This document shows, piece after piece, positions 59,492 through 61,744 of a stretch of 64,000 nt of DNA. Within the stretch, counting starts at the first letter, position 1. Every line of letters starts with the position of its first letter. The stretch comes from Octopus sinensis (taxonomy: Eukaryota), in the NCBI RefSeq assembly GCF_006345805.1, contig NC_043010.1, positions 5,208,001 to 5,272,000 of the forward strand, written 5' to 3'. Under the pieces are notes generated by a model. It was not told the DNA's origin. It searched no databases and worked only from the letters and a program-made list of their open reading frames with translations. Position numbers and translations under genes: made by a program.

Positions 59492-61054
59492 TACACAGAA
59501 AAGAAACACGGAGAGAAACAAGGAGAGAAAAAAAATGCGTGTAGAAGCTAACGGTCCATCATGGCATATATATATGAATTTCATTTTTCAAATTTCATTA
59601 AACTTATGGTCTACTGAGATATCCTCATCTTATTGATCTTGGAAGGAAGAAAAGCAGTTACCTTTGGCAGAATTTGAACTCAGAATATAAAGGAACAACC
59701 ACAAGGTGTTACATGTATCAAACTACCGATTTTTTGACACTCCTCACCCTTCATGTACACATGCAACTCTCGGGTTTGCTTCTATTATTTTATATTTATT
59801 TGTTATATACTTCTTTGAATGAAATTCCTCTTTTCCTCAAATATTTCCTTCAGCCCCCCATCCCCAGCCCCCTAATCTTGACATTTTTCATCTTTATAGA
59901 TTATCTGCTCCTAGTTTGTGAGTCAGATTTGTTGGCTGTTGTTGTTGATAGTTGTTGTTGTTGTTGCTGTTGTTGTTGTCGTCGTGATGCTATTGATGCT
60001 CATTAAGAAGATTATCAATCCCTGCAACAGAAAGATTTACCTTTCATCTTTCCAAGAACGGCATCCGCACAAACAATGCGGGAAAGTAGGTGTGTAAATA
60101 TCATGGCTGACCCTCTATCTCCTCTGTTGAATAAATAGATAAACACACAGTTTCACAACATCTATATACACACACAGACCTGTATATATCTATATCTACA
60201 TCTATATATATATGTATGCATATATATATATATATATACACACACACATGCATATACTTAGTCTTGATGTGAATTTAAGCTCTGTGAAGGCTGTTTTGTA
60301 ACAGCTTAAGATAAGGTTGAAAGATATTTGACCAGTTTCATTGTTGCTTGGTTCATCAAGGTAAAAACAGTTGAAGTGGAGCTGTGTGAATGGCCAGTTT
60401 ACAGATCCTCATCATCATCGTCATCGTCATCGTCACCATTATAATCGTCATCATCATCGTCATCATCATCGTCATCATCACCGTCATCATCATCGTCATC
60501 ATCAACATCATCATCATCATCATCATTTAAGGTCCACTCTTCCAGGTTTGCATGGGTTAGAGAGAATTCATTTATACAAACTTTCTATGGTTAGGGTAAC
60601 ATTTCCCGACAGGCACCTATGTTTTTTTTTCACCCAAAACTGGAAACAAACAACACTGCATGCATGATGGTGATGCTTGTTTACAACTATCACATGATGT
60701 CAGGACAAGTTCACACACACATACGTGTGTGTGTGTGGTAAAAGTGTTTGCTTCCCAACCACATGGTTCTGGATTCACTCCCACTTTGGGCTGGCCAAAT
60801 CCTTGTGGTTTTTTTCTAATTTATATATATATATATTATATTTTGTGAAATTTGATTTACTATTTCTAAATTTGAATTTTTCCCTGTAAGTTTGGAATAA
60901 TATTCCCTCATATTATTATTATTATTATTATATATATATATATTATATATATACACACACAATGAATGTATATATATATATATATATAAATTTTATTTCG
61001 TAATGAGATAAAAAACCAAGGCTGTGTAGATTTTAGAACATTTATAGATAGAAG

Positions 61055-61102
61055 GTCTTACAGCTGTTTCCAGGATATTTATTATATCCCTTCATCAGAG
61101 AC
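61055..61102 (-). ncRNA. Minimal type-I hammerhead ribozyme, canonical core
   Basis: Reverse complement: gtct CTGATGA a GGGATAT aataa ATATCCT g GAAA CAGCTG TA agac; predicted cut between 61059 and 61058. Confidence 0.8.
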
Positions 61103-61618
61103 GGTGTGAGAGGATGGTTAAGCAATAGTTAATTTAGATAAGATACAAAATAGAGAGTGAGATGGAGGAAATAAAAGAAAATAGATGTGAGATATGCAAG
61201 GGTATTGCATTTGTAGATCCATTTTGTTTTTAGGCGGAATGGTATACATATAATATTCCAATACCTTGTGAGTAAAATCCAATAGAATTTAAAGTTGGTC
61301 TTTCCAAGTATAGAGTTTATACACAGTGTTATTGAATCCAGGGTTGTGATTGAATCCAAGTTGGTCCCTTTAATTACAACTCTGGATTCAATAACACTGT
61401 GTATAAACTCTATACTTGGAATGACCAATTTAAAATTCTATTGGATTTTACTCATAAGGTATTGGAATATTATACGTATACCATTCTGCCTAAAAGAAAT
61501 GGATCTACAAATGCAATATCCCTACATATCTCACATCTATTTTCTTTTATTTCCTCCACCTCACTCTCTATTTTATATCTTATCTAAATTAACTATTTCT
61601 TAACGATCCTCTCACACC

Positions 61619-61666
61619 GTCTCTGATGAAGGGATATAATAAATATCCTGGGAACAGCTGTGAGAC
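61619..61666 (+). ncRNA. Inactivated sister hammerhead (GAAA>GGAA, GUA>GUG)
   Basis: gtct CTGATGA a GGGATAT aataa ATATCCT g GGAA CAGCTG TG agac. Confidence 0.7.
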
Positions 61667-61744
61667 CTTCTATCTATAAATGTTCTAAAATCTACACATC
61701 CTTGGTTTTTTTTTATCTCATTATGAAATGAAATTTTTATAAAC

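Follow-up and report, generated by a model that had tools for sequence, protein, structure and literature searches.

A palindrome towards the right-hand end of the window (the whole stretch of 64,000 nucleotides that was analysed) most probably consists of two 5'-truncated, hammerhead-bearing 3' ends of a high-copy repeat that lie head-to-head. It likely goes back to one insertion of a Penelope-like element (PLE) and has likely been decaying neutrally since. The features on which this reading rests, together with the other features of the window, are collected in Table 1.

Table 1. Features of the window, with coordinates, strand and the basis or character of each assignment.
Feature	Position	Strand	Remarks
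Reverse-transcriptase fragment	15371-15967	+	RVT_1 match below cut-off
Reverse-transcriptase fragment	25289-25666	-	RVT_1 match below cut-off
Degenerate (ACCCTA)n telomere-like array	30834-31019
Second hammerhead-like motif, other repeat family	35771-35838	+	Descriptor scan
Internally deleted mariner, 570 bp	41898-42467	-	First codons joined to the C-terminal 85 codons
5S rRNA-like copy, lone, full-length	45439-45557	-	Rfam 89 bits versus gathering 38; sole family at gathering score
31-nt unit, ten tandem copies	49046-49352
Reverse-transcriptase fragment	58188-58562	-	No Pfam match
3' end of the second repeat family	60805-60919	+	Likeness to 35945-36048 of 74% over 120 columns
(TA)n-rich tract at the left end of the palindrome, likely target	60929-60988
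Left arm, 5'-truncated 3' end of the repeat	60984-61368	-	Element sense on the minus strand
Hammerhead-like motif, type I minimal	61055-61102	-	Left arm; consensus core letters
Right arm, second 5'-truncated 3' end	61369-61740	+	Element sense on the plus strand; stops at the family terminus
Mirror motif with A13G (61652) and A17G (61662)	61619-61666	+	Right arm
Decayed mariner	61741-62586	-	HTH_48 and Transposase_1 pieces above cut-off

Architecture of the Palindrome

The original prediction spoke of a palindrome of about 750 bp, and the inverted repeat indeed measures 757 bp. Its paired arms run from 60984 to 61354 and from 61369 to 61740 with an unpaired spacer of 14 nt between them, and their alignment covers 370 columns with 23 mismatches plus two short indels. 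The 14 nt that have no mirror image (61355-61368) likely belong to the left arm, which makes the junction slightly asymmetric. The delimitation of the right arm is based on the contig depth profile described below and on loose ends at 61711 and 61723. An 18-nt direct repeat (61329-61364) is found at the inner end of the left arm, beside the asymmetric centre, and the arm mismatches at 61371, 61375 and 61381 are clustered at the tip of the hairpin.

The Repeat Family Behind the Arms

To place the arms in their family, the right arm and the adjoining mariner were used as the target for contigs of four of 24 public runs at 85% likeness. The four runs represent four coded organisms from three studies, and 7105, 6511, 4640 and 3481 records were aligned per run. 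In run X1, the summed depth over the arm amounted to 186,000 to 793,000, compared with 28-63 for each of the long pieces listed; such a sum is no copy number. Even so, the arm clearly represents the end of a repeat of very high abundance. In all four runs, the summed depth was minimal toward the palindrome centre and climbed 4.3-, 5.0-, 6.5- and 4.3-fold, respectively, from 61400-61437 to a peak near the hammerhead, an outward gradient as expected of 5'-truncated copies of a retroelement. The loose ends put the terminus of the family where both arms stop, and those at 61723 continue into TA-rich sequence. Along the terminal 38 nt of the arm (61704-61741), the depth falls 7- to 23-fold, and both arms contain that stretch. 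This fall may represent an optional PLE tail of 30-40 bp or may stem from a T-run whose length varies.

The family also folds back repeatedly and at variable points. Among the 15 joints listed (52 further), at least two join opposite strands, one at 61538/61583 in three of the four runs and the other at 61503/61670 in one of four. These joints bear on the possibility of a foldback or MITE-type DNA transposon, with the palindrome moving as a unit of 757 bp. The palindrome does have long inverted arms and one TA-rich end, which would suit such a transposon, but elsewhere in the family the fold-back points differ, and the palindrome shows no evident target duplication. In addition, the depth over the arm is uneven, with the bin next to the centre 5- to 14-fold under its neighbour (partly an edge effect), and 38-65 records per run extend past either end of the mapped stretch. 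A transposon of this type is, for these reasons, very unlikely.

At 61437, 61469 and 61624, the two arms agree with each other against the majority letter of the family, as would fit an origin from one template or from one subfamily. A quite different possibility is that the inverted repeat was created during assembly by a read or a contig folded back on itself. Inverted PLE structures are described as troublesome for short-read assemblies (PMC8557442), and none of the 32 contig pieces listed (21,956 further) bridges the junction of arm and mariner at 61740; the left arm and the centre lie outside the mapped stretch. A folded read would, however, not account for the mismatches and indels between the arms, with changes on both, nor for the asymmetric centre, and many of the changes match the family letter on the opposite arm. 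Common departures from the family and divergence on both arms therefore speak against an assembly artefact, which is scarcely credible. The same point had been made earlier on the strength of arm divergence, and it has held.

Flanking DNA and the Probable Mode of Insertion

The left end of the palindrome lies in the (TA)n tract, and no remainder of the mariner is present there, as had been stated from the first inspection; none was found elsewhere in the window. The claim that the right end coincides with a mariner transposase cut at its HDKAKPH motif was equally confirmed: the alignment stops at 61744, after HDKAKPHV, and some 90 codons plus the 3' inverted end are missing. This inverted end is absent from the window; the 5' one is located at approximately 62557-62586. 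The mariner aligns with its closest relative, P0003, over residues 1-159 and 181-249 at 65-72% identity, and its decay comprises one stop, one frameshift and the internal loss of about 21 codons.

The sole mariner C-terminus in the window (41985-42239) starts almost where the broken mariner stops. It was nevertheless rejected as the missing remainder, being 47% identical to P0003 as opposed to 65-72%. It belongs to the internally deleted mariner, a member of a different family with an inverted-end pair of its own (41898-41929 and 42436-42467).

An insertion-associated deletion had been suggested for this locus. The suggestion is plausible: the right arm stops at the terminus of the element and the mariner follows directly, an arrangement that speaks for target DNA having been lost during insertion. 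No target duplication is evident, and the 3' end of the mariner is gone from the window. No empty-site allele was seen. The DNA between (TA)n and mariner codon 249 was, on balance, probably lost at insertion; a later loss is a good deal less probable, and a loss that preceded the insertion is the least probable of the three.

The deletion is also a part of a further explanation, in which a single repeat end was made palindromic at a later time by fold-back synthesis during the repair of a DNA break, and in which the flank, including the 3' end of the mariner, was deleted. The variants that the arms have in common would allow one arm to be a copy of the other, and the deletion is found exactly at one arm end. 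Repair would, however, be expected to copy some host flank as well, whereas both arms, and hence the mirror, stop at the family terminus. Moreover, fold-back joints recur in other copies of the family and are the published rule for PLEs in the accounts of PMC8557442 and PMC3846280. Break repair is consequently considered quite unlikely.

The preferred reading is thus a single Penelope-like insertion. An endonuclease of the element would have cut AT-rich DNA, and cDNA synthesis would have started at the element end and halted after about 370 nt. The mirror half would have been made in the same event, either by a self-priming fold-back or by priming from both cut strands. In published work, head-to-head junctions are reported as the commonest, and self-priming was proposed for them (PMC3846280), and in vitro, both strands of AT-rich targets were found to be cut and extended (PMC11167929). 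Insertion in the latter system did not need hammerhead cleavage.

The insertion itself contains no ORF, and no reverse-transcriptase or GIY-YIG ORF could be linked to the arm. A search with arm peptides gave no score for any of five candidates. Two matches of an arm peptide to repeat proteins were rejected, since they involve several stretches of repetitive proteins that are unrelated to PLEs; the one that was checked has no Pfam family. DNA scans with two motifs gave no loci in metagenomes (scanned twice), prokaryote genomes or viral contigs, and none of four motifs was found in two supplements.

Hammerhead Motifs in the Two Arms

Each arm carries a hammerhead-like motif at approximately 75-120 nt from the terminus; the two cores are 525 bp apart and lie on opposite strands. 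The left motif, read on the minus strand, has CUGAUGA (at 61098), GAAA, the palindromic ACAGCUGU in stem III and GUA, with a stem I of 4 bp and a stem II of 7 bp. The palindrome of stem III comprises 8 nt, and its duplex is calculated at -11.1 kcal/mol. The right motif, on the plus strand, has CUGAUGA at 61623-61629, with a G at 61652 (GGAA) and another at 61662 (GUG). It had been claimed that the right motif differs at two essential positions only, and these two are in fact the sole differences between the arms from 61606 to 61698. When compared with CUGANGA / GAAA / UH, the left arm agrees throughout and the right arm departs at 61652 and 61662. Both positions belong to the consensus core as listed in PMC3088659, and A13G and G17 would abolish cleavage.

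The left motif had been described as intact. This is true of its core letters, but not of stem II, where A61630 stands opposite G61650 in both arms, so that the core-adjacent position has no Watson-Crick pair. The G10.1-C11.1 pair is accordingly missing from both arms, and an additional purine precedes GAAA. The left motif thus departs from the consensus: this pair is described as highly conserved in PLE hammerheads (PMC4209133), and candidates mispaired at 10.1-11.1 were rejected in PMC3088659. Run X2 has two loose-end lines (16 and 10 records) in which other copies of the family read A at 61650.

A descriptor that combined the core, a palindromic stem III and a stem I of 3 bp was used to scan the 64-kb window. 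Two motifs were returned, at 61098 (minus) and 35776 (plus), and none was found in any of 100 block-shuffled windows. Rfam reported no hammerhead at gathering score in the whole window, nor among the 17 matches with E <= 10 over 60800-62000. The matches to miRNA families at E <= 10 were rejected, as they reflect the hairpin and are all below gathering.

The contigs also indicate what the family looks like at these positions. Its letter at both changed sites is A, with 99.6-99.9% by depth at 61652 and 98.7-99.8% at 61662, and both changes are therefore private to the right arm. At 61624, which is position 4, the family majority is C (82-89% by depth), giving CCGAUGA, where both arms have U. Activity in vitro was considerably reduced by the U4C change according to PMC3088659. 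The U4 form from which both arms derive is the rarer one in the family, and the common one is non-canonical. The family would then have reached very high copy with a core that breaks two rules, having C4 in most copies and, in the place of G10.1-C11.1, purines that stay unpaired on either side of stem II. If such a core still cleaves, as a dimer or with a protein of the element, it would be an undescribed natural variant of which the U4 arms are a minority subfamily, a possibility that we put forward tentatively and consider unlikely. This non-canonical core was not encountered for such a family in the literature searched; it may already be described elsewhere.

Predicted Folding and the Question of Selection

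The folds predicted for the whole palindrome have energies of -559 kcal/mol (plus strand) and -534 kcal/mol (minus strand). In these folds, the pairing probability of stem II is 0.00 on both strands, compared with 0.98-0.995 in the isolated motifs. The sense hammerhead of a head-to-head palindrome always falls in the arm that is transcribed second. Whichever strand is read through, the hammerhead of the RNA is predicted to stay trapped in the long hairpin. Nor can the two motifs form a dimer in cis, which is what such minimal hammerheads need according to PMC4209133, because they are located on opposite strands. In the minimum-energy dimer that was predicted, the stem III duplex forms and the full active fold does not.

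For the loss of only the plus-strand ribozyme, chance and strand-specific selection had been offered as alternatives. To judge between these, the direction of the changes in the arms was considered. Forty of the 146 rows of the difference table were considered for polarising, and 13 of the 23 mismatches could be polarised, six from this table and seven from loose-end consensus lines judged by eye. Eight of the changes are confined to the right arm and five to the left. The probability that at least two of the eight right-only changes strike the core is p = 0.03-0.04, a post hoc value for one locus of a very large family; with the six table-polarised sites only, it is p = 0.016-0.021. When all 23 mismatches, unpolarised, were placed at random, the pattern described in the original prediction was reproduced in 8.4% of the trials (p = 0.084). 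The two core changes in the right motif are likely chance decay, as a share of the overall decay of that arm, and not the result of selection. Chance, with two of about eight right-arm changes in the core (post hoc p = 0.03-0.08), is the half of the earlier alternative that is favoured, and selection is unsupported.

If selection had nevertheless been at work, the palindrome would have the same origin, and its plus-strand hammerhead would have been selected against for cutting a plus-strand host transcript. Both differences in the motif do strike positions of the consensus core as given in PMC3088659, with p = 0.02-0.08 by the count used. A depletion of tandem retrozymes from the introns and exons of frogs is furthermore reported (10.64898/2026.07.22.740005), in a section that gives no strand test. 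However, the first core change would suffice to kill the motif, and a second would therefore be of no use to selection. The motif sits in the distal arm on either strand, where it is predicted to be fully paired with the other arm; neither hammerhead is thus predicted to fold in read-through RNA, and there is likely nothing to select against. Minimal hammerheads are moreover described as requiring a same-strand partner and as weak even then (PMC4209133), and the core-adjacent pair of stem II is missing in both arms. Host exons were not found among the 230 stop-to-stop ORFs of at least 55 aa in the window (complexity-filtered), none of which reached the Pfam cut-off for a host family; transposase families alone did so. 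The locus could lie within a long intron. Selection against the plus-strand motif is, on this evidence, highly improbable, and neutral decay of the inserted pair is preferred.

Editing of A to I was considered as a source of the A-to-G changes and was not supported, with five plus-strand A>G against two T>C among the polarised changes (p = 0.45) and 12 against five among the unpolarised transitions (p = 0.14).

Other Features of the Window

The second hammerhead-like motif of the window belongs to another repeat family. It has CUGAUGA, a long irregular stem II closed by A-U, the palindromic ACGAUCGU and GUA. The stretch at 35945-36048 lies downstream of it, and the 3' end of this family recurs just left of the (TA)n of the palindrome. 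The 5S rRNA-like copy has degraded ends and is probably a pseudogene or a 5S-derived repeat. Relatives of the 31-nt tandem unit occur once at about 60643-60719 and also at 14921-15005. The reverse-transcriptase fragment at 58188-58562 is, by eye, presumably of the Ty3/gypsy type.

Comparison with Known Systems

The adjoining mariner is comparable to the Mariner/Tc1 transposases related to SETMAR/Hsmar1, as its identity to P0003 and its HTH_48 and Transposase_1 pieces indicate. In contrast to these relatives, it is a decayed bystander without a 3' end.

The non-LTR retrozymes of animals (10.64898/2026.07.22.740005) resemble the palindrome in that they are non-coding and bear hammerheads, and an origin from PLE ends was proposed for them. 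They are described as direct tandem repeats that give multimers on the same strand, whereas the palindrome is an inverted pair. The window has only two copies, inverted, rather than hammerheads in direct tandem on one strand.

The inverted units of EN+ PLEs, as they are described in PMC3846280 and PMC8557442, show a closer likeness. They have element ends that lie head-to-head with slightly unequal arms, a hammerhead near the 3' end, (TA)n at one end and strong 5' truncation; inverted 5'-truncated copies and (TA)n targets are both reported in PMC8557442. The repeat family under study has the hammerhead at its 3' end, the 5' truncation and the head-to-head inversion at variable points. An AT-rich or (TA)n target is found at the left end of the palindrome, and the right end adjoins the mariner. 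Unlike these units, the palindrome shows no target duplication and has neither an ORF nor a linked one, so that it is not placed among the Penelope/Poseidon, Neptune, Nematis, Hydra and Naiad clades. In one annotation of an octopus genome, PLEs account for 6.83% of the sequence (PMC13282606).

The minimal hammerheads of metazoan PLEs are described in PMC4209133 as having a helix II of 7-8 bp, a helix I of 4-5 bp and a palindromic stem III. Opposite-strand pairs at distances of 100-700 bp were ascribed there to truncated PLEs. The arm motif is likewise of type I, with a helix I of 4 bp, a helix II of 7 bp, an additional base after A9, a palindromic stem III and an opposite-strand partner within 100-700 bp. 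It differs from them by the lack of G10.1-C11.1, and the family majority has C4 where both arms have U4.

Strand-specific selection on ribozymes is poorly tested with palindromes of this kind, since the motif is predicted to end up inside a hairpin whichever strand is transcribed; the appropriate copies for such a test are those with a single arm. The majority core of the family, with U4C and no 10.1-11.1 pair, bears on the question whether the spread of a PLE depends on cleavage by its hammerhead. Apart from this non-canonical core, the locus is an ordinary one, since opposite-strand hammerhead pairs from truncated PLEs have already been published.
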